This document shows, piece after piece, positions 1,880 through 50,877 of a DNA stretch of 64,000 nt. The DNA comes from Winogradskyella sp. Lineage in GTDB: Bacteria > Fidelibacterota > Marinisomatia > Marinisomatales > AB-629-J13. Numbering within the stretch: the first letter of the stretch is position 1; each line of letters starts with the position of its first letter. The notes beneath the pieces were generated by a model. The model searched no databases. It was not told the DNA's origin and saw nothing but the letters and a program-made list of their open reading frames with translations. The stretch is from positions 3,246-67,245 of the forward strand of contig CAXRJK010000024.1 of assembly GCA_964230865.1 (NCBI GenBank), given 5' to 3'. A program made the translations under genes and the position numbers.

Positions 1880-1897
1880 CTTTATAGTGCCAGACAA

Positions 1898-6730: not shown

Positions 6731-8421
6731 TGAAATATAGCGAATTTCCGTATAAAAGAATTTCAATTGAAACTCAAAAAGAATTCATGCAGAATTGGTT
6801 AAAGAGATTCAATGATGCAGAATCAGCTGAGGAACAAATTAAAGTATTGGAAGAAGTAAATACATCCATCAGTGAATACTCATCTTATGGTGCGATTGCA
6901 AGTTTAAACTTTAATCGCAATATACATGATGAAGAGGCCAAAGCAGAAAAAGAATATTATGATTCTATTGGACCTGATATACAAGAAATTTATAATGATT
7001 TAGATAAAGCAATAGACTCCTCAAAATTCAAATCAGAGCTCAGAGATAAATGGGGAAATACTTTTTTAAAGAGTATTGAAATGGATTTAAAAACTTTTCA
7101 TCCAAATATAATGGACATGATGAGAGAAGAAACAGACCTCAGAAATGATTACACAAAATTAATTGGGGGAGCACAAATAGAATTTGATGGAGAAACCTAC
7201 AATCTAGCCGGATTGGGTCCGTTTCACAAAGATAAAAGTCGCGCTATACGGAAACGATCTTATAAAGCCCGATTTGACTGGTTTGCTGAGAATTCAGATA
7301 AGTTTGATAACCTCTATGATAAATTGGTAAAACTTCGACATAAAATTGCTACTACACTTGGCTATAAAAATTTTATAGAGTTAGGTTATCTTCGGATGAG
7401 TCGTTCAGATTACGGGCCTGAAGAAGTAGCGAACTTCCGAAAACAAATTGTTGATTATGTTGTACCAATTGCTGACAAACTTTCGGAACAGAAAAAGAAA
7501 ATACTCGGATTAGAACATCTATATTTTTATGATGGGATAAATTTTATAGAAGGAGATCCAAAGCCGAAGGGTACACCAGATGAGTTGGTCAAAGGTGCCC
7601 AAAAAATGTACCATGATTTATCACCTGAGACAGGTGAGTTCTTTGATATAATGGTGAACGAGCAATTGATGGATTTAGTAAACCGTGATGGCAAAATGGC
7701 GGGGGGATTTTGTACAGCATTTCCAACATATGAGCGTCCTTATATTTTTTCCAATTTCAATGGAACTGACCATGATATAACAGTATTAACTCATGAAGCA
7801 GGGCACGCTTTTCAATGTTACTCTAGTCGTAAACAGCCACTAGTCAGTTATTTATGGCCAACAATGGAATCAGCAGAAATTCATTCTATGAGTATGGAAT
7901 TTTTTACATGGCCATGGATGGATACATTTTTCAAGGAAGAAACTGAACGATTCAAATATAAGCATATTGCGGGAAGTCTATCTTTTCTGCCTTATGGAGC
8001 ATGTGTAGATCACTTTCAGCATTGGGTATATGAGTACCCTGAAGCAACGCCAAAAGATAGGAAACAGAAATGGCTAGAATTAGAATCTATCTATTTACCA
8101 GACCGAGATTACGGTGACTTGGAATTTCCAAAGACTGGAGGTATATGGCAAGGTCAGCTTCATATTTATCAAATGCCGTTTTATTATATAGATTATACAT
8201 TGGCTCAAACCTGTGCATTTCAGTTCTGGATCAAAAACGAAGAAAACCATAAAAAAGCTTGGGAAGATTACTATCGCTTGTGCAAAGCAGGGGGCAGTTT
8301 ACCGTTTACAGAGTTGGTTAAGCTGGCAAAATTGAAATCTCCTTTTGAAGATGGATGTCTAAAGTCTGTTGTCAATAAAGTGTCAAACTGGCTGGATAAT
8401 ATTGACCCGTTGTCATTATAA
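6730..8421 (+). CDS. pepF: M3B oligoendopeptidase F
   Basis: HEAGHAF zinc motif (HEXXH). 563 aa, no signal peptide. TAATG 1-nt overlap with the ATPase gene. Confidence 0.8.
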   Translation: MKYSEFPYKRISIETQKEFMQNWLKRFNDAESAEEQIKVLEEVNTSISEYSSYGAIASLNFNRNIHDEEAKAEKEYYDSIGPDIQEIYNDLDKAIDSSKFKSELRDKWGNTFLKSIEMDLKTFHPNIMDMMREETDLRNDYTKLIGGAQIEFDGETYNLAGLGPFHKDKSRAIRKRSYKARFDWFAENSDKFDNLYDKLVKLRHKIATTLGYKNFIELGYLRMSRSDYGPEEVANFRKQIVDYVVPIADKLSEQKKKILGLEHLYFYDGINFIEGDPKPKGTPDELVKGAQKMYHDLSPETGEFFDIMVNEQLMDLVNRDGKMAGGFCTAFPTYERPYIFSNFNGTDHDITVLTHEAGHAFQCYSSRKQPLVSYLWPTMESAEIHSMSMEFFTWPWMDTFFKEETERFKYKHIAGSLSFLPYGACVDHFQHWVYEYPEATPKDRKQKWLELESIYLPDRDYGDLEFPKTGGIWQGQLHIYQMPFYYIDYTLAQTCAFQFWIKNEENHKKAWEDYYRLCKAGGSLPFTELVKLAKLKSPFEDGCLKSVVNKVSNWLDNIDPLSL

Positions 8422-19946: not shown

Positions 19947-19964
19947 GTTTATCTTCCTTATTGT

Positions 19965-19988
19965 ATAAAAAAAGCCCGTGAGGGCTTT
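19965..19988 (-). terminator. rho-independent terminator after rpmA
   Basis: The minus-strand RNA reads AAAGCCC-UCAC-GGGCUUU followed by UUUUAU. It lies 27 nt after the rpmA stop. Confidence 0.75.
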
Positions 19989-20015
19989 AAAATTATTATA
20001 GTATACCAGTTCTTA

Positions 20016-20267
20016 TCAGGAGATGACACTGACAGTTTTTCTGTTTTGTCCTTTCTTTTGAAACTTTACAACTCCCGAAGCAGTCGCAAATAAACTATCA
20101 TCCTGAGCTCTCTTAACATTAATACCCGGGTGAAATTTTGTCCCCCTTTGCTTTAATATAATTCCGCCAGAAAGTATGGATTGACCATCAGCTACCTTTA
20201 CACCTAAACGTTTTGCATTGGAATCACGTCCATTCCTTGAGCTTCCTTGACCTTTCTTATGTGCCAT
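20016..20267 (-). CDS. rpmA: 50S ribosomal protein L27
   Basis: [25 protein letters not shown]-terminus. Confidence 0.95.
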
Positions 20268-20677
20268 TATTCATCCTTTTTAGGTTTTTTAGCAGCTTTT
20301 TTTGTAGTGCTTTTTGCCTTTGTTTGTGTTTTAGTTTTTGCTGTTGTTTTTTTAGCAGGAGCTTTCTTGGCTTCTATTTTTTGAATTTCCAATATAGAGA
20401 ATCCCTGTCTATGGGTATTTTTATTTTCATATCCTTTTCTTCTCTTCTTCTTATATACAACAATTTTTTTGGTTCGTCCATGCTCCAGCAATTTTGCTGT
20501 TACTGTTGTATTTTTGACCATAGGGTTACCAACGGTTGTCTTTTTCCCATCATCAGTAAAATAGACATTTTCAAACACCACTTTGGCTCCTGGTTTGGAG
20601 TCAATAGTATCCGTCTGTATTTTGTCTCCTTTAGTGACTTTAAATTGTTTTCCTGCGATATCTACTATAGCGTACAT
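20267..20677 (-). CDS. rplU: 50S ribosomal protein L21 with a Lys/Ala/Thr-rich C-terminal tail
   Basis: [14 protein letters not shown] from ATG 20677; the track start 20689 is a TTG four codons upstream. TAATG overlap with rpmA. Confidence 0.9.
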
Positions 20678-20712
20678 TATTTTTCTCAAAAAAGCCGATG
20701 AATTTAATAGAG

Positions 20713-22245
20713 TTATTTATTCTTTCCAAGTTCTAGTTCTTCAGTTATATCAACATTTGTTTTAGGATGAATAAAACGAAATTCATCTCTAGATATTTCT
20801 GTATTTTCTTCAATCTTCAATTTGGTAAAATGTTTCCACATAAGCCCACGTAGCACTGTTTTTTTCTCGTTTATTATATAATCAGCGTTTTCCGGATGAA
20901 GTTGCAATCTTAATCTCAAATCATTTTTTTGGATTTTATAACGTCTAAGCCAGTGGTCAATCCTTGTAATCAAGGTATCTTTTGAGATAATACGACCAGA
21001 ACCAAAACATGTTGGGCATACTTCACTCATTGAATCCAAAAGACTTAGCCGGATTCTTTGACGAGTCATTTCAAGGATCCCAAAGTCAGAAATAGGAGAA
21101 ACTGCTACCTTCGCCCGATCTTTTTTCAATTCCTTACGCATTTCATTATATATTTTTCTTTTGTTATCCTCTTTAACCATATCAATAAAATCAATAACAA
21201 TTAATCCACTTAGATCTCTTAGACGTAATTGACGTGCTATCTCACGAGCGGCCTCAAGATTGATTTTGAATGAATTTTGTTCGTGTAATTTTTTCCCTAC
21301 AAATCGGCCACTATTTACATCAACTACTACCATTGCTTCAGTTTTTTCAATTATCAGGTATGCCCCGCTTTTTAACCATACTTTTGGACGCATTAACTTT
21401 GCAATTTCATCTTCTATGCCCATACTTTCAAAAATGGGAATTTTTAATTTATAACGCTGTATTCGATTCCCCATATTGGGAGTTACATCTTCAATGTAAT
21501 TTTGTAACCGTCGATATATTTTTTTAGAATCAATAATAATTTTATCCACATCAGATGTCAATAAATCTCGAATGACACTAGAAGCTGTTTCTAGGTCCTC
21601 ATAAACCAATGCCGGCGTTTTAGATTTTTTAGATTTTTCTTCTAGTTTTTTCCAGTGGGAGGTCAACATATCATAATCATTCTTGAGTATATCATCAGAT
21701 TTCCCCTCGGCTATTGTTCGAACAACGAGTCCAACCTTTTTTCCTCTCATTTTAGAACACAATTTTTTCAGTCTTCTACGTTCATATTTATCCCAAATTT
21801 TCTTTGAAAGACCAACATAATTAACTCCTGGGACTAAAACTAAGAATCGACCGGGGAGAGAAATCTCAGTGGTAACCCGTGGCCCTTTGCTAGCAAAAGG
21901 CTCTTTTATAACTTGAACGAAAATTTCCTGACCTGAAGTCAATTCAATATTACGATGGTTATCTTCTTCCTGTTTCTCAGATGTTTTTGAATCCAAAACT
22001 ACATCAGGGAGAAAAGAACTATTTTGGATTTCAGAAAAGGGGAGAAAAGCATTAATGGAGTACCCGATATCTACAAAAGCTGCCTGCATTCCAGGAATCA
22101 CATTTTCAACAACACCTTTATATATATTCCCGACCATTCGCTGTTGGTCTTGTTTTTCTACATAGACTTCTACAAGGCGGTCATCTTCCAATATTGCAAT
22201 TCGAGTCTCCCCCATACTCTCATTAATATAAATTTCTTTCTTCAT
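20713..22245 (-). CDS. rng: ribonuclease E/G family endoribonuclease
   Basis: N-terminal S1-like domain (GNIYKGVVENVIPGMQAAFVDIG), catalytic core VVVDVNSGRFVG, and CPTCFGSGRI zinc-link. 510 aa. Confidence 0.85.
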   Translation of the reverse strand: MKKEIYINESMGETRIAILEDDRLVEVYVEKQDQQRMVGNIYKGVVENVIPGMQAAFVDIGYSINAFLPFSEIQNSSFLPDVVLDSKTSEKQEEDNHRNIELTSGQEIFVQVIKEPFASKGPRVTTEISLPGRFLVLVPGVNYVGLSKKIWDKYERRRLKKLCSKMRGKKVGLVVRTIAEGKSDDILKNDYDMLTSHWKKLEEKSKKSKTPALVYEDLETASSVIRDLLTSDVDKIIIDSKKIYRRLQNYIEDVTPNMGNRIQRYKLKIPIFESMGIEDEIAKLMRPKVWLKSGAYLIIEKTEAMVVVDVNSGRFVGKKLHEQNSFKINLEAAREIARQLRLRDLSGLIVIDFIDMVKEDNKRKIYNEMRKELKKDRAKVAVSPISDFGILEMTRQRIRLSLLDSMSEVCPTCFGSGRIISKDTLITRIDHWLRRYKIQKNDLRLRLQLHPENADYIINEKKTVLRGLMWKHFTKLKIEENTEISRDEFRFIHPKTNVDITEELELGKNK

Positions 22246-22517
22246 AGCATATACCTGCCGTTAGATACTAAAATTAACCGCACCCCTAGGAGAAGAAGAT
22301 CAAATGACCAGTCCTAAACGGGATACAGTACTACCAGTTATTTTATAAGGTAAATTAAGAGGAAGGAAAAAATCTTATTGGGTATGGTGAAAAAAACTTT
22401 CTTAGTAAAAAAATAGTTAATGCCCCTTAATTAACCTATAAGCTAATGAAAAATTTAATTCCCTTAAAGTCCCACATCAAAGAATTTTGTTAAATTAAAA
22501 CAAAATTTGAGACTTTT

Positions 22518-23132
22518 GTGGAAAGGTATAAAGAAGATTCTTCAAAATTTTGGGAAAATATATATTTAGCGGGTGATACTGGATGGGATTTGGGTGGTCC
22601 GACTCCTGTCTTTCAGAAACTATCTGAAACAATGAGTCCAGGTAAAATATGTATACTTGGATGTGGTAAAGGATATGATGCTATAGAATTTTCTCAAAGA
22701 GGATTTGAGGTCACAGCAGTAGATTTTTCAAAAACAGCTGTTAATAGTCTCAAGACACTAGCATTAGCTAAAAATGTGGCGGTTAATGTAATTCAGGATA
22801 ATATCTTTTCTTTAATACCTAAGTACAGAAATAGTTTTGATTATATACTTGAGCAAACCTGCTTTTGTGCTATTAATCCAAACAGACGAATTGAATATGA
22901 AAAATTAGTATATTCACTTTTAAAATATTCTGGGAAATTAATAGGACTTTGGTTTCCATTAGATAAAAGTCTAGAAGAGGGAGGACCTCCATACGGAACT
23001 AAGGTGGATGAAGTGAAAAGTATTTTTAGTAATCCATGGAAAATTGAGGTGGATAAATTTTCTGAATTATCCATAAAATCCAGAAAAGAGAGGGAAAAAC
23101 TGATTATTTTTAAGAAGGAGAATAATGAATAA
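22518..23132 (+). CDS. TPMT-family SAM-dependent methyltransferase (thiopurine / halide-thiol methyltransferase-like)
   Basis: FWENIYLAGDTGWDLGGPTP followed by the SAM motif ILGCGKGYDAIEF..GFEVTAVDFS. GTG start. Confidence 0.6.
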   Translation: MERYKEDSSKFWENIYLAGDTGWDLGGPTPVFQKLSETMSPGKICILGCGKGYDAIEFSQRGFEVTAVDFSKTAVNSLKTLALAKNVAVNVIQDNIFSLIPKYRNSFDYILEQTCFCAINPNRRIEYEKLVYSLLKYSGKLIGLWFPLDKSLEEGGPPYGTKVDEVKSIFSNPWKIEVDKFSELSIKSRKEREKLIIFKKENNE

Positions 23133-23751
23133 TAAAGGACATGTTATTGCCATTGGCGGTGGGGGATTTGGAAGGAATCCTAAACATAATAAAATTGAAA
23201 AATACATTTTAGGCCTTATTGAAAAGAAAAAACCAAATATTGTTTTTTTACCAACGGCTAGCGCTGAGGATAAAGGATATATTGTAAATTATTACTCCTG
23301 TTTTTCAAAGTTGAGCTGTGAACCATCTCATGTTACATTTTTCCAGCGCACACCAAGATTAGAGGGTATTATCAATAAGGCAGATATTATTTATGTTGGA
23401 GGTGGGAACACAAAAAGTATGTTGGCAGTTTGGCGAGAGTGGAAATTGGATAAACTGCTATTGAAGGCTTACAATCAAGGAAAAGTTTTATGTGGAGTGA
23501 GCGCTGGAGCTATTTGCTGGTTTGAACAGGGAATCACGGACTCTTGGGCGAGTAACTTAAATACTCTAAATTGTTTAAATTTCATTTCAGGTATGTGCTG
23601 TCCTCATTATCAGGAAGAGGAAGAACGTCGCCCCAGCGTCCACAAAATGTTAAAAACAGAAAAATGTATGCCTGGTTGGGCAGTTGATGGAGGGGCAGCG
23701 TTACATTTTTGCAATGGAGAGTATTTTAAGTCAATTAAATTTTATAGATAA
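23125..23751 (+). CDS. S51 family peptidase (dipeptidase E-like)
   Basis: VGGGNTKSML and the nucleophile motif CGVSAGAICW. 208 aa. Confidence 0.7.
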   Translation: MNNKGHVIAIGGGGFGRNPKHNKIEKYILGLIEKKKPNIVFLPTASAEDKGYIVNYYSCFSKLSCEPSHVTFFQRTPRLEGIINKADIIYVGGGNTKSMLAVWREWKLDKLLLKAYNQGKVLCGVSAGAICWFEQGITDSWASNLNTLNCLNFISGMCCPHYQEEEERRPSVHKMLKTEKCMPGWAVDGGAALHFCNGEYFKSIKFYR

Positions 23752-23940
23752 TCCTTTGTATATTATGTTTCAATAGAAAAAGAGAGAGTCATCGAAAAAA
23801 AAATGAAAATGACTGTTTTATAAAATTATTTATTGTATAAATTAAAGAAGCCAAAACCTACATTCTAATTATTCAAAGCAGAAATACTGATTTGGTTTAT
23901 AAGGGCTTTTAATAATATTTTCCAACTGCTGGTATCAAAA

Positions 23941-25158
23941 TCAACTAAATCTATTTTGTGAAACTAATTGTTTGAAATATGAAATTTCATGCCGAGATAG
24001 TTTTCTGTTTCTTCTTTGCATTACTTTCTGTGCAGTTTCAATAAATTTATCAAACTGATATAAGGTTTGGTTACCATTTGCAATCCATGAAAAAGGTTCA
24101 ACATTTGAGGGAGAAAAACCGCTTGAGACAATACTGGAACATGGTCCAAAAACAGAGCCAGTATTCATTTGAGTTCCAATTCCTGTTTTTACATGATCAC
24201 CAATAAACGAACCAATAAATGGAGACCCTGTATTAACCTTTTGTCTATCTAAATTGATATATACATCAGAATAATTATTTTTCAAATTACTGTTGGTTGT
24301 TCCTGCCCCTAAATTAACCCACTCTCCTAAAAAAGAATTTCCCAAATGCCCATCGTGAACCTTGTTTGAATATCCTTGAAAAATGGATTTTGAAATTTCA
24401 CCTCCTACTTTACATACGGGACCGATCACTGATGATGATACATAGGTATGTGGTTTTACGGTTGTACCTTGTCCAATGATTAAAGGACCTTCTAAATATG
24501 TCAAAGATTGAACGAGAGTGTTATCCATAATCTTGACAGGCCCCTTTTCTGCATTTATTACAACTGTTGGCTCAACTATTGCTGAATCACTAATGTAAAT
24601 ATTTTCTTCTCCAACAATATGAAATGAATCTAAATGGGCTTTTTTATTGAAAACTGATTTAGTCTTATCTATTTCTTCGCTCAATGTTTTAGGAATCCTC
24701 TCTAAAATATCCCATAAATAAGAGGCTTTTTGACCGGTTATTTCATTTTGATTAAAATGTTCTGGGAAATTACTCTCAACAGGACCACCCATCTCCATCC
24801 ATAATTTTCCTGATTGCTCAGATAATTTAAATCCAACAACCTCATCTTTAATTAGCCAGCTTGACTCTTCCCCAGAATTAAGTTTCTCTAACATGTGTTT
24901 ATTCCAAAATATATGCCCAGCAAGCCAAATCCCTTCATTTATATTTTGGGGGTTTACCTCTAGTTCACTATGCTTTCCCCTTACTAGATCAGCTATTTCA
25001 TTTCTTACAAATATAGAAATTTTATCATCAGAGGAAACCAGTTTTTTAAATCTATCTAAGAATGTATCCATACCAATTCTGATATCCATGATGGACCGGG
25101 TGACAGATATTGGATAGAAATTTGTTGTTCTACAATTCTCAAATAAATAATAATTCAT
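23941..25158 (-). CDS. putative sugar-phosphate nucleotidyltransferase/acetyltransferase with a left-handed beta-helix (alternative GlmU-like)
   Basis: N-terminal nucleotidyltransferase-like fold (LFENCRTTNFYPISVTRS) and C-terminal hexapeptide repeats (GPVCKVGGEISKSIF..NKVHDGHLGNSFLGEWVNLGAG). Confidence 0.55.
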   Translation of the reverse strand: MNYYLFENCRTTNFYPISVTRSIMDIRIGMDTFLDRFKKLVSSDDKISIFVRNEIADLVRGKHSELEVNPQNINEGIWLAGHIFWNKHMLEKLNSGEESSWLIKDEVVGFKLSEQSGKLWMEMGGPVESNFPEHFNQNEITGQKASYLWDILERIPKTLSEEIDKTKSVFNKKAHLDSFHIVGEENIYISDSAIVEPTVVINAEKGPVKIMDNTLVQSLTYLEGPLIIGQGTTVKPHTYVSSSVIGPVCKVGGEISKSIFQGYSNKVHDGHLGNSFLGEWVNLGAGTTNSNLKNNYSDVYINLDRQKVNTGSPFIGSFIGDHVKTGIGTQMNTGSVFGPCSSIVSSGFSPSNVEPFSWIANGNQTLYQFDKFIETAQKVMQRRNRKLSRHEISYFKQLVSQNRFS

Positions 25159-28646: not shown

Positions 28647-30080
28647 ATGAGATTCCAAAATAAAAATAACACCTATTTTCAAGTTATAATTGTTCTATTA
28701 TCATTATTTTTTTTAAATAGTATAAAATATGCTCAGGTATTGCCATATGATAAACCTTCGATCTTTTCAAACAATCCACAGACTACCCCTAAAACAATAT
28801 CACTTAACGAGGATGAAATTCAAATATTAGATGACGATTGGAGAGTAGGTTCAAAAATTCTAGAGGGTGAAAATGTAATTTATTTTCTTCATTTTTCAAT
28901 GGAAAAAGAAATAAATATACAATTGCAATTGGATAAAAGTAGTTTTCCTGAAAACGGAAAACTATTTATCATCGACCCTAAAAATTGGGCTTGGGTGGGA
29001 CCTTATAAAAAGGAATATATAAGCACTGATTTTTCATATTACACAGGTAGAATTAAAACATCAGAATTTATCATAGAGTTTTCTATACCTGTAAAATATG
29101 AAAGTTTGTTACCAAAACTCTTAATTCAAATGCCTTCCTCAAATCCAGATGAACCTGAGACCATACCAAGATTTTTCCACCGTCCAAAGAGCAAAAGGGA
29201 AAATCCGGTAATTTTGCTCACTGGATATTGGCCTCCAACCAATGAAGCTGTAAGGCCTTTTAGTCAAAATTCCCTTTTAAATCCAGACGGGTGGATAGGA
29301 GATAACTGGGAAGAATTTGGTTTTGACATTATTTCATATTTTCCAACTTTTTTCCCTCCTGACTGTGAAAGCTGCGGACAGGGTAATGGAGATTTTGAGG
29401 TGGACTATCAGGATACATCAGAGGACTGGTGGAACATAGTAGACTCACTAAACCCTATTTCAATCATAACCTTTAGCCGAGGATACATAAATTATAGTTG
29501 GGAACTGGAATATAAATATTATAATTGGTTTAATTGGATTAATGATTTTACTCCACCTTATCAGCCTACGCCTACACCTCCAGATCAAGATTCTCCTGCT
29601 AATTCCATGCGATTTTCATCCCTGCCAATGACAGAAATTGTTGATGTTGTAAATGGTTCAGATTTGGGTTTAAACGCTTATATTGATTATGCAGCGGGAG
29701 CCGGACAGTATTTATCTGAATTCAAAGGATTTCATGGAGTGTGGTATAAAGCTCTCATGGAAAATATTGAAGATACACCATGCTATGTTGCTGGTCATGT
29801 CCATGTAGGTGGATTAGTTGATTGGGATACAGCTCATGAAGCAGTCAAGATTACACTGAGGGAAACCATAAACTATATTCAGGAAAACTATCTTAGCCCA
29901 GGTGATATAAATCGTGACGGTTTTATTAATTCCTTGGATCTAAATTTAATATTATCTCACATAAATGGATTCAATGAATTAACGGAGGATGAGGTGTTTT
30001 TTGCTGATATGGATCAAGATTCAGATATTACCTCACATGATGTTGTTTTACTGGTAAATTTGATGATTTATCAAAATTAA
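28647..30080 (+). CDS. secreted protein: N-terminal beta-rich region + pyroglutamyl-peptidase (C15)-like domain + C-terminal dockerin-like double Ca-loop
   Basis: Signal peptide. VILLTGYWPP, SWELEY, GQYLSEF and AGHVHVGG line up with the PGP-I landmarks TGF.PF, E, C and H. GDINRDGFINSLDLNLIL and ADMDQDSDITSHDVVLLV are dockerin-type loops. Confidence 0.45.
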   Translation: MRFQNKNNTYFQVIIVLLSLFFLNSIKYAQVLPYDKPSIFSNNPQTTPKTISLNEDEIQILDDDWRVGSKILEGENVIYFLHFSMEKEINIQLQLDKSSFPENGKLFIIDPKNWAWVGPYKKEYISTDFSYYTGRIKTSEFIIEFSIPVKYESLLPKLLIQMPSSNPDEPETIPRFFHRPKSKRENPVILLTGYWPPTNEAVRPFSQNSLLNPDGWIGDNWEEFGFDIISYFPTFFPPDCESCGQGNGDFEVDYQDTSEDWWNIVDSLNPISIITFSRGYINYSWELEYKYYNWFNWINDFTPPYQPTPTPPDQDSPANSMRFSSLPMTEIVDVVNGSDLGLNAYIDYAAGAGQYLSEFKGFHGVWYKALMENIEDTPCYVAGHVHVGGLVDWDTAHEAVKITLRETINYIQENYLSPGDINRDGFINSLDLNLILSHINGFNELTEDEVFFADMDQDSDITSHDVVLLVNLMIYQN

Positions 30081-42127: not shown

Positions 42128-42514
42128 ATGTTAGAAGGTATAATCTGCCCTGTTTGCGAATCCACTTTAGATGATACTAAACTGAAAGAGTCACTTGTTT
42201 GTGTATTTTGCCGGACCGATTTGAAAGATCGGAAATTTCTTGATTTCCTAGAATATTTAATGACAAATGGAATTGTCAAAAATCTAGACTTTTTTGATAT
42301 AGAGGTTTACAGCGAAGATATCGAGCGATTGAGTCCTGAAGATGAGGAAGAAGTTGATCCTGCTGAATTTGAAAAAAAGAAAGATAATTTTAATTTTTAT
42401 GAAAATGAAGTTGTTCATAATAATAAGAAGGATGACGAACCAGATTATGAGGAGTTTGATGGGTTAAACGAGGATTGGGAAGAGTTTAACCAAAGAGAAT
42501 TTGAAGGATTTTAA
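42128..42514 (+). CDS. zinc-ribbon protein with a long acidic tail, unknown function
   Basis: CPVC...CVFC in the first 30 aa, then a Glu/Asp-rich C-terminal half. Confidence 0.45.
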   Translation: MLEGIICPVCESTLDDTKLKESLVCVFCRTDLKDRKFLDFLEYLMTNGIVKNLDFFDIEVYSEDIERLSPEDEEEVDPAEFEKKKDNFNFYENEVVHNNKKDDEPDYEEFDGLNEDWEEFNQREFEGF

Positions 42515-43539: not shown

Positions 43540-46500
43540 TTAGAGACTTGCTTGCAGTCTCAATACTATCATTTGACCCATCTCAGGTCCTCCCATGATT
43601 TCGGTATGTCTGTGGTTCAGAACGTTATTGATAGTAAGATTTAATTTTAGTTTGTCGTTGAACTCATAACCTGAGTGGAGATCAAAAATTGTGTAGGCAT
43701 CGATCTGTCCATAGTATATACCTGAGGACCATCGAAATGCATCCACATAGCGGGCGTTAAGGGTGAAATTCATAGGTAATTTTCTAGGTATGTATTGCAA
43801 CTGCATACCCGCTTTGTGCTTGGGAGCATTGATGGGATCATAAGCATTTGTTATGGGATTCAAGAATTCATTCATCCCAAGGTGAGAGTAGGTCAAATTT
43901 AATGACCACTCTCGACTAAGGAATATTGCGAGGCTTGCGTCTAGACCCCACAGGTCAACCTCTCCATAATTAATAAAGCCAACTACTACCGGCGGTGTAC
44001 TCCCACTGCTTTCTTCCATTGCTGTTATTCCATTCAAACCACTTAACCATTTATCAAGTGATATATCCAGGTCTTCTGAGTCTGCAATAATATTGTTGTC
44101 CATATCATTGATATTATTGGTGATACCATTGTTGTTATGATCAATCTCTAATCCTGAGGTAGGATTGTATTTATCTAAAATGATTGGGGTAATAAATGTT
44201 GCACCGCTGACAAAGCTATTATAGTGGCTCGCATAGAGATCGAGGGTGCCAAAAATATTCGGGGTTAACCGGCCCTTGTAGCCAAACTCCAGTGTCTGGA
44301 CTATCTCCGGTGATACTCCGGGGAGGTCGTCAGCGTTTCCTCTGTAGTAGCCTTTGATTTTTGGATCTACTGATGGATAGAAGAGAACGCTTTTTTCTGG
44401 ATCATACCAACTGTAGGTGTATGAGTCCACATTAAAATAACGAATCTGATCATACAGTGGATTTAGTGTATCCGAGAAAGCTTCACCTTCATCCCAAACA
44501 TTGTTAAAATTAGAATCATCCCAATTTTCAGAGACATCAACTCCCTTAGTAAAAACGCCGTCCTGATTTTGATCAACCCAGTTCCACTCACCTTCCTGCC
44601 AAACATCTTGATTCCTTATATAATTATATCCACCATCTGCTCCACGAGCATATACCTTAAAAATAGATACCCTTGTAATGTATATATCTAGAAAGAGTGA
44701 GTTGTTTGAGGGGGTATTAAATGCCTGAGCCCAGGTTAATCTGAAGTTCTGGTGTTCCCTTGGTTTGTACGCCAGCCCGATTTTTGGAGAGACCTGGATA
44801 CCATCCGTTTTATCAAAATCAAATTTCCATTTGAACGGACTATAATTATAATCTTGTTGATTATCAAACTCTACAAAATCTGAGAGCCTATCATGAACAT
44901 CAAAGCGTGTTGCCTGAATCAATTCAAATTTTTTGGAAAGTTTCCAGTTTAGCTGATAATAAAGTCCCAGCTCATTGACCACATATCGATTATCTTCCGC
45001 AGGCTCATCAATCCCTTCATCTATATTCTCATCAATATTTCCATCCCCGTTATTATCAATCCCATCTGCATAAACATAAAAGTTATCCTCACCAGCCCAT
45101 CTGACCCCTGGTTCAGCCTCACCATAGTCACAGACCCCATTGCCATTCTCATCGATATAATCGGGGATTCCGTTGCCGTTTAAATCTGAAAAATCATTAC
45201 TATCACCGTCATTGTCCAGGCCGTCTGCATATGCTCCCTGTACATTATCAGTTAATATATCACTTTTATTTTTTAGATAGTCAACACCGGGGTCATAATA
45301 ATAGTCAATATATCCAAGTGGCTCTACTAGACCCGTTAGAGAGCCCCCCTCTCCGTTTCCATTGTTATCTCTTAGATCGTTTCCAGCTTTATCAGACAAT
45401 ATGGTCCCCCGGGTGTCTGGCATTGTGAGAAAATAGTCTAGCCCCCAAACAAAACGGAAGTTACCATCAAAATACTCTAAAGCATGCTGAAACTGAGCAG
45501 AGAACTTTTTTGATCTATCATATATTCGTCTTCCGGTGGCAAGACTTCGTGTAGGTTTTTTGGGATTACCGGAGTAGCTTGAGTTAAGATATGTTTGAAA
45601 AAAGAAATTCTTAAAACGGAGCCTACCCTGATAGTATTTATATATCCATCCGTCTGCAAGATACCGTGCAATAGGTGTAATGTTTATATTTCTGGCATAG
45701 GCATAGCCGTGGTTTACACTGAGACTGATATCGTTATTTGGTTCCCAGTCAGCACGGATATCATAGCGATAGTTGCGGACGTTAAAATCTGGATAATCAT
45801 TTACTCCATCATCATTGGCGTCCATCAAAACATTTGGTAGGTTCCCGTAATTTAGATTAAAGTCGCCTTCATCTGGCTCATCAACTCCAATCTCTCCTAT
45901 GGATGGTAGACCATTACCATCAATGTCATTTAACTCAAACTGGTCCCAGACTCCGTTTCCATTTATATCATCGAGTGACTCATTGGGGTCCCATATTCCG
46001 TTTCCATTTGAATCGACAAAATACTCTGAGTCAGAATATTCTCCATCACCGTTTAAATCCTCAAAAGGCTCTGCGGGGTCCCACTCCCCGTCCCCATCAT
46101 AATCAGTCCATGGAAATAGAAAATCACCTTCGTCAAAAACCTCATTACCATTGTTATCTGCGAATGACTCTTCACTCTGCCATCCCTCAACCCCGTTTTG
46201 CTCTGTATATGGCTCTGCATCATCCCAGACGCCATTAAAATTTGCATCAGCTAAAAACTCTCCCTCATCCCAGATACCATTAGAGTTCAGATCCTCAAAC
46301 TCTTCTTGAGCGATATCCCAGGGATTCCCTGATTCATCAAAATATGGTGCCCAGTCGCCATCATTATCTAAACCGTCAGCTCCCCAGTTGTCACCGTATA
46401 CTCCATTTTTGTTACTGTCAAACAATATATTTCCATCTTCATCATACTCATATTCACCGAAACCGCCTCCGTCAACGGTCCAATTGTTTGTAAAGTCCCC

Positions 46501-47868
46501 AAACCTGCCTAGCCATTCACTTCCCTGTTCATCGGACTCATCAATTTCTCCATCATTGTCATTGTCTACACCATCGATCCAGACCTCTGCATAGTCATCT
46601 ATACCCTCATCAATTCCATTGTCAATTTGCCCATCTCCGTCATTGTCAATACCGTCAGCGTAGCCTTGCCCCAACATTTCCTGGGTGACAAACCAGAGGG
46701 TGATATTTGTTCCAGGTACAGTGTATCTTTGAAATTGATCAGAGGCTGCCTCGTCAATCATTTCTTGGGTTATTGTGGGTGAGCCAGCTTCTGCGTCATT
46801 ACCGAAGTTACTAATACCATCAGAAAACATAAGTGAGTCTTCGACCCATGAGGGATCTGAATTTTCCCAGACATTTAGCATTTCTTCTGTAAAGATAGGA
46901 TTATTTTGTTCCCAGGCATTATTATTATTATCAATCTTATCGTGTCTTAGACTGTGTCTTCCAAGAAACGCCGGGTCATGACCCTCGTACTCATCGGAGT
47001 TGAAGTGTTTCCAGTCGCTTCCTCTTAGAGCTACTCCGGAAATTTTAAATCCAAATTTTCCAAAGCTGTGAGCTGTACGAAATGTAATTTTTTGTAGTGG
47101 GTCTGTGTCTGCCTGTGATATAGCTCCTCCCATTACATTGAGAGAGGTCCCCTGTGATCTGAGTGGAGAGCTAGAAATAATATTTAAAACACCGCTATGA
47201 GCGTTTGGTCCATAAAGGGCAGAGGAGGGCCCTAGAACCACCTCAATTTGCTCAACATCATCAAAGCTCACAGGTATAACATTATACGCTGTCAATCTTA
47301 GAGAGGGGACATTTGCCATTCTTCCATCCGTAAGGGTCATAAGCCTAGAACTGAATGAGGAATTAAATCCTCTTGCTGTGATATTGTAGCTGTCAATACC
47401 TGACTGAGTAAAATCAAGCCCCTTTGTGGTTTTTAAGTAATCACCAAGATTTGTGTTACTCTCTCTTCGAATATCTTGTTTGGTAATAACGGAGATGGCA
47501 GCGGGAGCATCTTCGATCCTTTCTCTTCGCCGCGATGCTGTTACAACATACTCTTCCATTTGAATGGTAGACGTTAGAAGTTCAAAATCAAGTCGGTTAT
47601 TGATTCCTGCTTCAACCACGATAGTTTTTTCCATAGGCTCATATCCCATATAGTGGGTGGCTACAAGATAAGTCCCGGCAGGAACATTGGGTATAAAAAA
47701 AGCTCCCTTTACATCTGTAGCGGCCCCCATCGTTGTCCCTTTTACTATAACGTTAGCACCGATTAAAGGCCTATCGCTATCTGCATCTTTTACGTTGCCT
47801 GAGATAGATGTTTGGGCAAGAATGCTATTTAGAATTATGATATTGAAAATGAATACAAGTTTGGCCAT
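43540..47868 (-). CDS. giant TonB-dependent-receptor-like outer membrane protein (CarboxypepD_reg + plug + barrel) with acidic Ca-loop repeat insertions
   Basis: Signal peptide. GNVKDADSDRPLIGANVIVKGT (CarboxypepD_reg-like). EEYVVTASRR...IEVVLGPSSALYGPNAHSGVLNI (plug). Barrel-like alternating pattern through to the end. GGAG Shine-Dalgarno upstream. 1442 aa. Confidence 0.75.
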   Translation of the reverse strand: MAKLVFIFNIIILNSILAQTSISGNVKDADSDRPLIGANVIVKGTTMGAATDVKGAFFIPNVPAGTYLVATHYMGYEPMEKTIVVEAGINNRLDFELLTSTIQMEEYVVTASRRRERIEDAPAAISVITKQDIRRESNTNLGDYLKTTKGLDFTQSGIDSYNITARGFNSSFSSRLMTLTDGRMANVPSLRLTAYNVIPVSFDDVEQIEVVLGPSSALYGPNAHSGVLNIISSSPLRSQGTSLNVMGGAISQADTDPLQKITFRTAHSFGKFGFKISGVALRGSDWKHFNSDEYEGHDPAFLGRHSLRHDKIDNNNNAWEQNNPIFTEEMLNVWENSDPSWVEDSLMFSDGISNFGNDAEAGSPTITQEMIDEAASDQFQRYTVPGTNITLWFVTQEMLGQGYADGIDNDGDGQIDNGIDEGIDDYAEVWIDGVDNDNDGEIDESDEQGSEWLGRFGDFTNNWTVDGGGFGEYEYDEDGNILFDSNKNGVYGDNWGADGLDNDGDWAPYFDESGNPWDIAQEEFEDLNSNGIWDEGEFLADANFNGVWDDAEPYTEQNGVEGWQSEESFADNNGNEVFDEGDFLFPWTDYDGDGEWDPAEPFEDLNGDGEYSDSEYFVDSNGNGIWDPNESLDDINGNGVWDQFELNDIDGNGLPSIGEIGVDEPDEGDFNLNYGNLPNVLMDANDDGVNDYPDFNVRNYRYDIRADWEPNNDISLSVNHGYAYARNINITPIARYLADGWIYKYYQGRLRFKNFFFQTYLNSSYSGNPKKPTRSLATGRRIYDRSKKFSAQFQHALEYFDGNFRFVWGLDYFLTMPDTRGTILSDKAGNDLRDNNGNGEGGSLTGLVEPLGYIDYYYDPGVDYLKNKSDILTDNVQGAYADGLDNDGDSNDFSDLNGNGIPDYIDENGNGVCDYGEAEPGVRWAGEDNFYVYADGIDNNGDGNIDENIDEGIDEPAEDNRYVVNELGLYYQLNWKLSKKFELIQATRFDVHDRLSDFVEFDNQQDYNYSPFKWKFDFDKTDGIQVSPKIGLAYKPREHQNFRLTWAQAFNTPSNNSLFLDIYITRVSIFKVYARGADGGYNYIRNQDVWQEGEWNWVDQNQDGVFTKGVDVSENWDDSNFNNVWDEGEAFSDTLNPLYDQIRYFNVDSYTYSWYDPEKSVLFYPSVDPKIKGYYRGNADDLPGVSPEIVQTLEFGYKGRLTPNIFGTLDLYASHYNSFVSGATFITPIILDKYNPTSGLEIDHNNNGITNNINDMDNNIIADSEDLDISLDKWLSGLNGITAMEESSGSTPPVVVGFINYGEVDLWGLDASLAIFLSREWSLNLTYSHLGMNEFLNPITNAYDPINAPKHKAGMQLQYIPRKLPMNFTLNARYVDAFRWSSGIYYGQIDAYTIFDLHSGYEFNDKLKLNLTINNVLNHRHTEIMGGPEMGQMIVLRLQASL
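44995..45234 (-). repeat. second coding array of acidic Ca-loop motifs inside the receptor gene (aa ~879-958)
   Basis: YADGLDNDGDS, DLNGNGIPDYID, DENGNGVCDYGE, YADGIDNNGDGNIDENIDEGIDE. Confidence 0.8.
45784..46662 (-). repeat. first and largest coding array of acidic Ca-loop motifs inside the receptor gene (aa ~403-695)
   Basis: YADGIDNDGDGQIDNGIDEGIDD, DGVDNDNDGEID, DGLDNDGDW, then eight 12-residue D-x-N-x-N-G-x-W-D-x-x-E type loops. Confidence 0.85.
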
Positions 47869-47900: not shown

Positions 47901-47933
47901 TAAAAAGAAACAGCCAGCAAAAGCTGACTGTTT
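47901..47933 (-). terminator. rho-independent terminator/attenuator between the T9SS cargo gene and the receptor gene
   Basis: Minus-strand RNA AAACAGUCAGC-UUUU-GCUGGCUGUUU (11-bp stem with one G-U) followed by CUUUUUA. It starts 34 nt after the cargo stop and ends 32 nt before the receptor ATG. Confidence 0.7.
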
Positions 47934-47967
47934 CAGATAATTCAAGGGTTGAATGTTAAGTACAGAC

Positions 47968-50877
47968 CTATTTCATTAGCAACATTTTCTTGGTGGCCTG
48001 ATAAGGTCCTGCATCTACACGGTAAAAATACATTCCGCTTGCCAGTTGATCTCCATTGAAAGAGAATGTATGTATACCGGCACTCAAGTCACCGCTGTGC
48101 AGTGTCTCAACCATTTGACCAGCGAGTGTCCAAACTGATACAGTTGTGTGCTGGTCTTCCGGTAATTGAATTGCAATTTGGGTTACCGGATTGAATGGGT
48201 TGGGGAAATTCTGCTTTAGCGCAAATGATCCAGGGAGTGCTTCCGTACCAGCTTTTCTCATGGTTAGCTCAGAGACATCTCCAGTAATTATGAGTTCACC
48301 TGAGCCCTCAAGAGTATACTGCTGTGATCCCGATAATATCCATTGAGACCCGTCCACAATTTCATATGTAATAGTGAGCTCTTTTGAGTTATCACTGACA
48401 AATAAAACACCTGAGTTTTCAATGTATCTCATGTCATTTTCAAAGCGGATATCAAACGCACCAACAGCTTCAGGTGGCGCGGGTGGTAACCCATAACTGA
48501 GTTTTTCTTTTTCATCAGCAATGGCCAATCCAAAATACAGAGGCATAGAATTCAGACCCATACCATTTGTAAGCTGAATAGTGTTTGCTGTCTGTCTCTG
48601 GAATTCCCTTGTCTTTCCAGATGAGGCCCCCTTTGTGAAGGTTACATCAGATGTCTCAGATGCGCGTACCCAGTAACCTCTTCCAGGGACAATAGCCTGA
48701 GCATCTGCATAGGTTCCCGCAAAATCATATAGAGACCCTGGTACAATGACACCATTGGGATCGGTAATCTCATTCAGATACATTACCTCAGAAATACCAG
48801 ATATCATGTTCCAACCTTCAGTTAATGTATGGGTAATTGTCAACCTGTCATACCCCTGAAATAATGCAATATGGTCTGTGGTAGAGCGCAGCCAGTAGCC
48901 TTTTCCTGCTACAGGGGCAACGGCAGGAACATAGGTTCCATTAAACTCATATAGAGACCCGGGAACTGTTTCAATACCATCCGCTGTTGGATCACCGAAA
49001 AGATCAAGGTCCGGGATCTCATCTCCGTCCACATCGTATAGGTAGGGTAGCCCGCTGGTCTCAATGGGAAGTCCCGCTAGGTTCCAGCCTTCATTGATCT
49101 GTGCCAACCCTGGGTTACCGTTGGTTGCTAGACAAACGCCTGTACAATAATCTACACAATTATCCTGAGTTTCTCCACCGCCCATACACTCTGCGACGCA
49201 GGTGGGTAGTTCAGTTGCAACACAGGTACCAAAACCTACCTGGTCAAGCCAGCGAAAGTTTTCTGTGTTTTGAAAACGCGCTGTGACTTCCTGAGTTTCA
49301 ATAACAGGAATACATAGGTTGTCAGCTTGAAAGGTCAGCCGACCACCATTAGCAGAATAGGGAGAGTCTGGTACGCCATCGCCATCTGTATCAATAAAGG
49401 TAAGATCATTTACTAAGTCAATTTCATGGCCGGAATCATCAGGAAATGACCAGGCACCGCCTGTAGCATATTCAGCTGCACCAATGCACCAGATCAAACC
49501 CTCAAGTACACAATCCATTGGGTCACCACCCGTACCGAGACAGGGAAGTATGACCTCATTGTATGCGCCCGCTGAGACAGCTCCTGCAGTTCCAGCATCC
49601 AATCCAAATGTTGTTAGGATAGCAGCTCCCGCATCATCAGCACACTCCTCAACAGATAAAAAAGTACAGTTAGCAACACAGCTTTCTTGATCTGTACCTC
49701 CTGCCATACACTCTGCAACACATCCGGGAACAAATGCGTTGGCACATCCCTCGAATGTTCCCACACCTGTTCCATATGCAACCATAAAGTTATAGGTAAA
49801 ATAGTATCCGGTAAACTGTAGGGGCTCATCACCATTCATGGGAACGCCATCTGCGCCCACTGGGTCAAAAAGCTGTGCCCACTCACCCCAGTTTTCACTG
49901 GTTGGGTCAAAAATTGGATTTCCATCCATTGGGTTTGTTCCAATGGGAGCATTTGCAGAGCCTAAAACACCGTTATAAAAGCCAGCTTCTTCTTCAACAT
50001 ATGCATCGTCAGTTGGGTCCACAACATTGATATTGCTGGAGGGGCCATCTGTGGCTGACCAGCCCACACCAAAGTCCTGGACAGTTGAAAAATCATCATT
50101 GTAGGTTACCTGCATGTAGCCCCAGCTTGGGTTGGGTGTATGGTGTGGAGCAGAGGTTCCCTCTTCTCTCCAAGGGAAATCAGTAAAGTCAACTGAGTTT
50201 CCAATCTGACCATAGTCAACTCCAGGTACATCATTTAAAAGGTCGACAGCTGAAAATTCTGCAAATGTTCCGGATAGGGTGATTCCCCAGCCCTGATTCA
50301 GCTGATTGCGAAACTCATCTACGAACGTTCCTGCGCTGGTCCATGTGCCATCCTCATTGACCGGGAGAACTTCCTGACCTGTAACGCAGTCCGCTGTAAC
50401 AGTTGTGGGATAGTTACTGCCGTGTCTATAAAAAGGTGGAGGCTCGATACCATCAGATCCGTCACCATTAAAGAAATCATTTGAGGCATCATTAATGTGA
50501 AATGTTCCATCATCGTTAAAGTCAACATTCATGGAAATCCAGCCATATGGAAATCCAGCTAACTGGAGCAGCCCCCAAAGAGGAACCGGTAGAGTTCTAG
50601 CTGTGTCTCCAATAGCAAAAGATACAATTGGGTAGCTAAAAAGCGGGTTTGCGCTGCTGGGCCAGCTTACGGTAAAATCATATCCACCCTGAGCGTTAAA
50701 TGGGTTGGAAGGATCGGATAGAACTGGCTCAAGGTCAGTTGTTGCATCCGGAGGGCGAACAACCCAGGTGTAGTCTACATTTATGTAATCAACCTGATAG
50801 TTTCCTGTAAGTGACTGGGAGAGGACCAGGGAGGTTAAAAACAAGGTGTAAACTGATAGTTTGTAAAACTGATTCAT
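47968..50877 (-). CDS. 969-aa secreted protein of unknown function with duplicated Cys motifs and a T9SS C-terminal sorting domain
   Basis: Signal peptide LFLTSLVLSQS. C-terminus LKQNFPNPFNPVTQIAIQLP...GMYFYRVDAG...KKMLLMK. AAGGAG Shine-Dalgarno upstream. Confidence 0.7.
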   Translation of the reverse strand: MNQFYKLSVYTLFLTSLVLSQSLTGNYQVDYINVDYTWVVRPPDATTDLEPVLSDPSNPFNAQGGYDFTVSWPSSANPLFSYPIVSFAIGDTARTLPVPLWGLLQLAGFPYGWISMNVDFNDDGTFHINDASNDFFNGDGSDGIEPPPFYRHGSNYPTTVTADCVTGQEVLPVNEDGTWTSAGTFVDEFRNQLNQGWGITLSGTFAEFSAVDLLNDVPGVDYGQIGNSVDFTDFPWREEGTSAPHHTPNPSWGYMQVTYNDDFSTVQDFGVGWSATDGPSSNINVVDPTDDAYVEEEAGFYNGVLGSANAPIGTNPMDGNPIFDPTSENWGEWAQLFDPVGADGVPMNGDEPLQFTGYYFTYNFMVAYGTGVGTFEGCANAFVPGCVAECMAGGTDQESCVANCTFLSVEECADDAGAAILTTFGLDAGTAGAVSAGAYNEVILPCLGTGGDPMDCVLEGLIWCIGAAEYATGGAWSFPDDSGHEIDLVNDLTFIDTDGDGVPDSPYSANGGRLTFQADNLCIPVIETQEVTARFQNTENFRWLDQVGFGTCVATELPTCVAECMGGGETQDNCVDYCTGVCLATNGNPGLAQINEGWNLAGLPIETSGLPYLYDVDGDEIPDLDLFGDPTADGIETVPGSLYEFNGTYVPAVAPVAGKGYWLRSTTDHIALFQGYDRLTITHTLTEGWNMISGISEVMYLNEITDPNGVIVPGSLYDFAGTYADAQAIVPGRGYWVRASETSDVTFTKGASSGKTREFQRQTANTIQLTNGMGLNSMPLYFGLAIADEKEKLSYGLPPAPPEAVGAFDIRFENDMRYIENSGVLFVSDNSKELTITYEIVDGSQWILSGSQQYTLEGSGELIITGDVSELTMRKAGTEALPGSFALKQNFPNPFNPVTQIAIQLPEDQHTTVSVWTLAGQMVETLHSGDLSAGIHTFSFNGDQLASGMYFYRVDAGPYQATKKMLLMK

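Follow-up and report, generated by a model that had tools for sequence, protein, structure and literature searches.

TonB-dependent transporters (TBDTs) of the SusC and Oar types belong to the same class, that with an N-terminal extension (NTE) (PMC6434023), and BtuB illustrates how calcium can order the extracellular side of a TBDT, since Ca2+ held in an aspartate cage restrains its loop L2 and raises its affinity for cobalamin about 1000-fold (PMC7360065). Here we analyse a 64,000-nucleotide stretch of DNA (the window; NCBI GenBank assembly GCA_964230865.1, contig CAXRJK010000024.1, positions 3,246 to 67,245 of the forward strand, deposited as Winogradskyella sp. and placed by GTDB in the Fidelibacterota) and, within it, a gene for a TonB-dependent receptor of 1442 amino acids (aa), the query of all comparisons below. 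Our results show that its product is a genuine TBDT of the NTE class. We consider it fairly probable that the protein is a TonB-dependent importer with a calcium-riveted core and an adjustable array of loop repeats, acting jointly with a cargo protein of type IX secretion (T9SS) that is encoded directly upstream.

The Pfam domain order CarboxypepD_reg, Plug, barrel is common to the query, to the SusC/RagA proteins of Bacteroidota and to Oar of Myxococcus, and the likeness to SusC extends to an ancestry in the FCB group and to genetic pairing with a cell-surface protein. Unlike SusC, however, the query has no SusD-like lipoprotein gene in its neighbourhood, its place being taken by the T9SS-sorted partner upstream, and its loops L2, L5, L7 and L8 carry arrays resembling calcium sites, for which we found no such description in either SusC or Oar. 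Membership of SusC/RagA was rejected: the match to TIGR04056 reaches 76.6 bits against a cut-off of 368 and covers aa 21-228 only, the SusC signature TIGR04057 is unmatched (E=0.17, 11.7 bits against 46.2) and no susD-like gene is adjacent. The same applies to NCBIfam as a whole, in which the protein reaches no equivalog cut-off, all matches being far below. BtuB of E. coli (PDB 1nqg) is similar in being a 22-strand TBDT with a calcium-ordered L2, the loop that also holds the largest acidic insert of the query. Yet the sequence similarity between the two is restricted to the plug, and BtuB, a protein of 594 aa, has two Ca2+ and short loops, whereas L2 of the query is 411 aa long, has a net charge of -103 and offers about a dozen candidate sites.

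The predicted barrel and its enlarged loops

The initial annotation, made from the sequence alone, had described a TonB-dependent-receptor-like protein of 1442 aa and left its strand, the minus strand, unstated. The open reading frame (ORF) and the profile searches bear this description out, as Pfam finds CarbopepD_reg_2 (aa 22-109, E=3e-22), Plug PF07715 (69.5 bits against a cut-off of 23.9) and TonB_dep_Rec_b-barrel PF00593 (48 bits, cut-off 27, E=2e-12, strongest over aa 1169-1416), with both plug and barrel above their cut-offs. In a sequence search of the PDB the plug matches the plugs of CirA and BtuB, and the resemblance in sequence to solved structures is confined to this domain. The segment EEYVVTA may be the TonB box, judging by its resemblance to the TonB-box consensus. 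We can state that the gene is real and that its arrays are old at the nucleotide level because relatives with 81-98% identity occur in independent assemblies and because DNA repeats are absent: full-length relatives with 81-86% identity were found in separate ENA, JGI and NCBI assemblies, the metagenome-assembled genome UBA2986 holds a 98%-identical copy, and Tandem Repeats Finder, run on the gene, returned zero DNA-level repeats corresponding to the protein arrays. An assembly artefact, slippage or a recent duplication is thereby ruled out.

The barrel (aa 243-1442, without the plug) was modelled with AlphaFold2 (AF2) from a family alignment of 72 sequences, with a mean predicted local distance difference test score (pLDDT) of 69.8, and L2 was also modelled alone. 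DSSP assigns 22 long strands to the barrel model, the number anticipated in the initial annotation, and Foldseek against the PDB places it closest to PfeA (3.5e-18), followed by CirA, BtuB, FrpB and OprC (range 1e-18 to 1e-13). All even-to-odd strand connections are 2-6 residues long, which is the signature of periplasmic turns, and every long connection is odd-to-even. In solved TBDTs strand 1 rises from the periplasm and the odd-to-even connections form the extracellular loops L1-L11. By this universal topology the acidic inserts, all of which lie in odd-to-even connections of the model and not in periplasmic turns, are predicted to be extracellular, as had been supposed from the sequence.

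Three acidic inserts had originally been listed, and all three are present, but their borders were drawn too narrowly (the predicted loops L2, L5 and L7 span aa 285-695, 819-963 and 1052-1187) and a fourth enlarged loop, L8 (aa 1217-1303, with a DHNNNG site), was overlooked. L2 contains 110 D+E against 7 K+R. L5 contains two EF-like loops and the second of two 23-residue repeats described below, the latter just ahead of strand 10. The acidic insert of L7 is found only in the query and its closest relatives. The four loops together have a net charge of -154, against +6 for the remaining 663 residues, and the charge per residue of the whole protein is -0.10, against a mean of -0.009 for the other ORFs of the window. 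When L2 is modelled alone from the same alignment, aa 294-524 and 634-684 reach pLDDT values of 82-97 with almost no helices or strands, and the tandem array (aa 529-629) has values of 38-64 and no predicted helices. The confident, irregular and hyper-acidic core of L2 in this model is what would be expected of a fold held by bound cations.

Loop motifs and curated metal-binding families

Two motif families occupy the loops. The first consists of the eleven EF-loop-like 12-mers already listed in the initial annotation, every one of which was located (starting at aa 526, 541, 571, 589, 604, 619, 634, 648, 895, 906 and 1118). They were counted with the pattern D-x-[DN]-x-[DN]-[GNE]-x-[WFYPC]-[DS]-x-x-[ED], with 5000 composition-preserving shuffles as a control, and since 0.008 matches are expected per protein against the 11 observed, the motifs lie far above chance even at this acidic composition. 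Within insert 1, the acidic insert of L2, the figures are 0.02 and 8. The 12-mers place suitable residues at the canonical Ca-ligand positions 1, 3, 5, 9 and 12, with Gly at position 6 (D1, [DN]3, [DN]5, a hydrophobic residue at 8, D9, E12), and eight of them follow one another at intervals of 14-18 residues, which makes them a tandem array that repeats about every 15 residues. The second family had been given as five copies of ADG[ILV]DN[DN][GN]D: four are exact, and at aa 432 the fifth is a variant, IDGVDNDND. Also found were the 23-mers reported together with them, two nearly identical copies that lie 530 aa apart at aa 403 and 933.

The likeness of the first family to known calcium loops is considerable, with the 12-mers following EF-hand or DxDxDG loops in their canonical Ca-ligand positions and thrombospondin type 3 (TSP3) repeats in being consecutive, with almost no secondary structure between them. 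The initial annotation had fitted the loops to the EF-hand/dockerin pattern and had mentioned TSP3-like Asp repeats on OmpA-family proteins of Bacteroidota, but by Pfam, PROSITE and period the loops stand outside the EF-hand, dockerin and TSP3 families. EF-hands and dockerins require flanking helices, whereas a 15-residue period, which leaves three linker residues, gives them no space; EF-hand membership is excluded by these short linkers, by the lack of any Pfam or PROSITE match and by the lack of predicted helices. Dockerin type I (PF00404) has no match on the protein either, a negative result that is meaningful because the same Pfam library finds a true dockerin in the ORF at 28647-30080. 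TSP_3 and bacterial TSP3 give no match at E<=10, and the disulfides of eukaryotic TSP3 are missing in the query, the whole protein having a single Cys. Among the precomputed Pfam domains of 120 homologs there is no EF-hand, dockerin or TSP3 family, NCBIfam gives insert 1 just a sub-threshold match to an ‘acidic double-disulfide repeat’ (E=0.025), and a PDB sequence search with insert 1 at E<=10 came back empty. In the open-access literature we found no account of calcium-loop arrays in TBDT loops, merely generic mentions of Marinimicrobia receptors, and the titles and abstracts listed for TonB-dependent proteins with EF-hand or thrombospondin type 3 motifs hold nothing on such loops inside a TBDT. 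No characterised family with such arrays and a defined substrate emerged from these searches or from NCBIfam, in line with the initial annotation, which was aware of none.

The second family appears to be a Cys-less version of the MopE repeat, a resemblance to PF11617 (Cu-binding_MopE, C-D-G-x-D-N-D-C-D-G-x-x-D-E) and not a membership. It aligns in register, paired spacing included, with the repeats of P0133, a protein that has 35 PF11617 repeats (48-57% identity, pairwise E=1e-8). However, both Cys are substituted in the query, one by Ala/Ile and the other by Gly/Asn, the context is a barrel loop and not a Cys-rich secreted protein, and the Pfam model gives the query no score, so that membership of PF11617 was rejected. 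For both families the geometry of the motifs, together with the loop net charge of -154, suggests that the loops bind calcium.

The same features could be read differently, with the acidic crown as the substrate site itself, a cation trap that would gather a scarce metal (Fe3+, Cu, Zn or a lanthanide) at the barrel mouth of a metal importer. The PF11617 model from which the second family differs by its lack of Cys carries the name ‘Cu-binding_MopE / putative metal-binding motif’, the nearest solved barrels include the siderophore and copper transporters PfeA, CirA and OprC, and two invariant His (H288 and H297) stand at the start of L2, where the dense carboxylates (110 D+E) and the Asp at loop position 9 would suit cations of high charge. 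JGI even names the protein automatically as an ‘outer membrane receptor protein involved in Fe transport’, but this is a generic label carried by many homologs and no evidence of iron transport. The Cys residues that define MopE-type repeats are the very ones that are missing, the neighbourhood has no siderophore, metal-regulator or periplasmic metal-binding genes, and the number of loops varies from 1 to 12 among orthologs, which is odd for a defined site. Moreover, seawater contains about 10 mM Ca2+ and 50 mM Mg2+, which would occupy ordinary carboxylate loops. Uptake of a scarce metal is, in our judgement, improbable.

The 15-residue unit is widespread. An exhaustive HMMER search with insert 1 retrieved 571 representative proteins at E<=1e-3, most of them matching the tandem array. 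The carriers are large, mostly unannotated environmental proteins of up to 5755 aa with long runs of the unit, P0121 and P0122 among them (in P0122, for example, ...EPYTDSDTNGVWDPAEPLIDS...). Pfam gave almost no annotation for ten other carriers, and a cluster look-up gave almost no names. From its sequence, the unit looks like an uncurated calcium-loop repeat family, one that has no model in the Pfam copy searched. Three further carriers (P0160, P0207 and P0253) have an NTE-plug(-barrel) architecture, share just about 30% identity with the query in NTE and plug, and bear long arrays of the repeat inside their barrel regions; because of them, calcium-loop-like arrays in TBDT loops are a recurrent feature that extends beyond the query gene. 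P0160 is a 1226-aa NTE-TBDT with about 17 copies (L085:6001-15681, JGI metagenome 3300034152), and on its contig, the one long contig available for such a gene, an 805-aa hypothetical protein, a PorV homolog and two FlgD_ig or CHU_C proteins, as in T9SS cargo, lie 3' of the gene. This locus is a second, independent link of array-bearing TBDTs with type IX secretion.

Conservation, the upstream partner and the neighbourhood

A protein search returned more than 1900 relatives of the query. The best 120 of them have 1171-1447 aa, apart from one truncated entry of 846 aa, and those with a name are TonB-dependent receptors of Candidatus Marinimicrobia/Neomarinimicrobiota, the phylum called Fidelibacterota by NCBI and part of the FCB group. 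A scan of one genome per GTDB species found 147 relatives, and among the best 80 of these all whose record names a phylum are Marinimicrobia. Conservation was assessed in 67 full-length species-level orthologs, of 1164-1442 aa, the present lineage having the longest. Each has 7-17 DxDxDG motifs, a number that rises with length (rho=0.77), and seven sites of this type are conserved in 90-100% of the orthologs, six of them in 99-100%. These nearly invariant sites lie at aa 408, 435, 484 and 683 in L2, at aa 834 and 938 in L5 (both about 100% conserved) and at aa 1243 in L8, the DHNNNG site, which all 67 orthologs keep. Three D-G-x-D-N-D-x-D-G-x-x-D-E motifs are invariant across the family. The tandem array, on the other hand, is present in about half of the orthologs, is missing from the short forms and is the most plastic region of the protein, with indels of 52-58 aa even between close relatives; its identity to homologs is 43-85%, against 82-99% for the plug, the best conserved part. 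The protein is thus built in two layers, an acidic core that is conserved and a tandem extension that is plastic and reaches its greatest length in the present lineage, and the architecture is the norm for a phylum-wide orthologous family and no one-off.

Such plasticity could also mean that the arrays are a fast-evolving polyanionic brush or spacer with no specific ligand or partner, transport needing the conserved core alone. The brush might lift or mask an abundant surface protein against phages and grazers, or reach past T9SS-anchored proteins and lipopolysaccharide. Besides the indels, the absence from short orthologs and the low identity just described, this would agree with the low AF2 confidence in the array and with the use of the 15-residue repeat as a module of many unrelated large proteins and of other TBDT families. 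However, the repeat retains all its Ca-ligand positions and the aromatic residue at position 8 in very distant proteins, which favours a metal-dependent, folded unit over a random acidic linker, and a brush leaves both the invariant core and the conserved partner gene without explanation. We find it rather unlikely, and it is partly compatible with the calcium-riveted importer, the two differing mainly on whether the array has a specific function.

The gene directly upstream encodes an acidic protein of 969 aa with a T9SS type A C-terminal sorting domain (CTD). For its phylum-specific N-terminal domain (about 540 aa) 97 homologs could be detected, of which the named ones are all Marinimicrobia, and no Pfam match falls on this domain in any of the 97. 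A partner ortholog (N-terminal domain plus CTD) lies directly upstream of the TBDT gene on the same strand in 51 of the 51 related loci whose upstream sequence extends for at least 2.5 kb, which gives strong genomic support to the link with the upstream T9SS cargo that the initial annotation had suggested. Only in the clade with the largest TBDTs does the partner have an additional middle domain, about 340 aa long. Around aa 375-460 and 550-580 the partner is rich in Cys, and a motif (VPGCVAECMAGGTDQESCVANC ... LPTCVAECMGGGETQDNCVDYC) recurs in these segments, which shorter orthologs lack.

Strict adjacency to the gene of a secreted protein is also what might be seen if the TBDT worked in reverse, releasing or exporting its neighbour across the outer membrane as an Oar-like transporter. 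Oar of Myxococcus is of the same NTE-plug-barrel class and is required for secretion of PopC, but Myxococcus, where Oar acts, has no T9SS (PMC6434023). Here the neighbour has a T9SS type A sorting domain, hence its own export route, and because of this signal Oar-like export is unlikely; moreover, the likeness to Oar rests on a shared domain class and not on family membership at the level of sequence. We regard an exporter as very improbable.

Between the two genes lies a spacer of roughly 81 nt with a stem-loop. All 58 of the 58 related loci show a stem of at least 10 bp in this spacer, a feature of just 1 of 58 shuffled controls, and the stem sequences co-vary between lineages with the pairing kept. 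In many cases an A-run lies 5' of the stem and a T-run lies 3' of it. The stem-loop looks like an intrinsic terminator or attenuator and could set the ratio of cargo to TBDT expression.

Just downstream of the TBDT cassette, adjoining the DUF3467 gene, an ORF of 128 aa (window 42128..42514, plus strand) has a net charge of -25 (-0.195 per residue) and no Pfam match, and it is kept in distant relatives (131-134 aa, loci L001 and L003). The other neighbours of the cassette are housekeeping genes (electron transfer flavoprotein alpha/beta, PAP2, DUF3467 and inositol monophosphatase). Elsewhere in the window, the dockerin-bearing ORF mentioned above (28647..30080, plus strand) encodes an acidic protein of 477 aa and net charge -37, with Dockerin_1 at its C-terminus (aa 418-471, E=2.4e-10) and about 415 N-terminal aa without a Pfam match, and the regions 152..8421 and 17127..25158 encode an oligopeptide-type SBP_bac_5 protein and peptidases of families M3, M16, M50 and S51. 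This surrounding peptide-oriented gene content fits a proteolytic lifestyle and has no syntenic tie to the TBDT cassette.

Table 1. Features of the TBDT gene and of the adjoining upstream region, in positions of the window (AF2, AlphaFold2; NTE, N-terminal extension)
Feature	Position	Strand	Basis
TonB-dependent transporter gene, 1442 aa + stop	43540..47868	minus	ATG-to-stop ORF, Pfam domains, >1900 homologs
Putative signal peptide, aa 1-18 (MAKLVFIFNIIILNSILA, followed by Q)	47815..47868	minus	translation inspected by eye
NTE, CarboxypepD_reg-like, aa 22-109	47542..47805	minus	Pfam PF13715 E=3e-22, PF13620 E=4e-15
TonB-box-like segment EEYVVTA, aa 105-111	47536..47556	minus	sequence inspection; nearly invariant in family consensus ETYVVTASRRRE
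Plug domain, aa 118-227	47188..47517	minus	Pfam PF07715 E=4.2e-19
Loop L2 between strands 3 and 4, predicted extracellular, aa 285-695 (411 aa; net charge -103)	45784..47016	minus	AF2 topology
Paired Cys-less MopE-like motifs, aa 403-452 (YADGIDNDGDGQIDNGIDEGIDD ... IDGVDNDNDGEIDESDE)	46513..46662	minus	invariant family columns; in-register PF11617 alignment
Tandem array of about 9 EF-loop-like units, [FY]-x-D-x-N-x-N-G-x-W-D-x-x-E, aa 521-662	45883..46308	minus	positions and spacing
Loop L5 between strands 9 and 10, predicted extracellular, aa 819-963 (net charge -28)	44980..45414	minus	AF2 topology
Loop L7 between strands 13 and 14, predicted extracellular, aa 1052-1187	44308..44715	minus	AF2 topology
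Lineage-specific 51-aa acidic insert in L7, about aa 1090-1135	44464..44601	minus	family alignment
Loop L8 between strands 15 and 16, predicted extracellular, aa 1217-1303 (DHNNNG, conserved, at aa 1243)	43960..44220	minus	AF2 topology
Gene of the upstream partner, an acidic protein of 969 aa (net charge -97) whose sorting domain (T9SS type A) is C-terminal, at aa 891-965	47968..50877	minus	Pfam Por_Secre_tail, TIGR04183
Intergenic stem-loop, 12-bp stem then T-run	47907..47934	minus	terminator-like site between cargo and TBDT genes

A proposed calcium-riveted importer and its significance

In the importer that we favour, the seven DxDxDG-type sites and the three Cys-less MopE-like motifs at the bases of L2, L5 and L8 make up the conserved core common to the family, which AlphaFold predicts with confidence as a compact domain nearly free of secondary structure. 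With a net charge near -100, such a domain would probably be stable only with bound divalent cations, and at the about 10 mM Ca2+ of seawater it would be permanently loaded, so that calcium would act as a structural rivet and not as a signal, in the manner of the two Ca2+ on loop L2 of BtuB and on a roughly tenfold larger scale. The role in Ca2+ sensing or buffering that the initial annotation had considered was rejected as implausible because Ca2+ in seawater is saturating. Atop the core, the array of 15-residue EF-loop-like units, with a copy number that depends on the lineage and is highest here, may serve as an extension that is adjustable, is stiffened by calcium and lifts or broadens the extracellular vestibule. 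The T9SS-sorted partner, presumably attached to the surface, would capture or process a nutrient and pass it to the barrel, a role modelled on the surface partners of SusC-like and other TBDTs.

Several points weigh against this mechanism. The loops are outside every curated calcium-binding family searched (Pfam, NCBIfam and PROSITE): the three inserts, searched alone against Pfam at E<=10, match nothing, EF-hand, Dockerin_1, TSP_3 and TSP3_bac included, and the strict PROSITE EF-hand pattern PS00018 has 0 matches on the protein, which it fails because of the Trp at loop position 8. AlphaFold places no ions, metal binding being proposed from motif geometry and loop charge, and the extracellular placement comes from counting strands on a DSSP string combined with the universal TBDT topology. 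The tandem arrays and inserts 2 and 3 have pLDDT values below 50 and may therefore be disordered, and the L2-only model has no Foldseek neighbour in the PDB at E<=10, hence no function to borrow. As for the partner, its acidity (-97), as strong as that of the loops, led us to reject charge complementarity as a docking principle and makes simple electrostatic docking unlikely, co-transcription of the pair is not assured because of the conserved terminator-like hairpin between the genes, and the substrate cannot be deduced from the context because the neighbours are housekeeping genes.

A bolder proposal, to which we assign a low probability and which we offer tentatively, is that the TBDT and its T9SS partner form an undescribed machine for nutrient capture at the surface, universal in Marinimicrobia, in which a dome of calcium-riveted loops, several hundred residues in size, and not a SusD-like lipoprotein lid, builds the extracellular vestibule and docks the T9SS-anchored partner. 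If this were true, the arrays found in unrelated NTE-TBDTs near PorV and T9SS cargo would point to a general, unrecognised principle in the design of outer-membrane transporters of T9SS-bearing bacteria.

Among the uncultured heterotrophs of the dark and low-oxygen ocean, Marinimicrobia (SAR406) rank with the most abundant, and to our knowledge no substrate or structure is known for any of their TonB-dependent receptors. Transcripts and proteins of these receptors are abundant in the ocean, and their genes are among those that Marinimicrobia express most (PMC13096325, PMC5776962). The family described here has the look of a phylum-wide core machine of the outer membrane, unusual in three respects: extracellular loops far bigger and more acidic than those of solved TBDTs, a likely structural dependence on seawater calcium, and a gene obligately paired with that of a type IX secretion substrate. 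The 15-residue repeat and the Cys-less MopE-like motif, both widespread and without a model in the Pfam and NCBIfam copies searched, merit family models of their own. If confirmed, our proposal would add to the means by which TBDTs are known to construct their extracellular side, and the two-gene cassette would provide a molecular handle on what Marinimicrobia eat.

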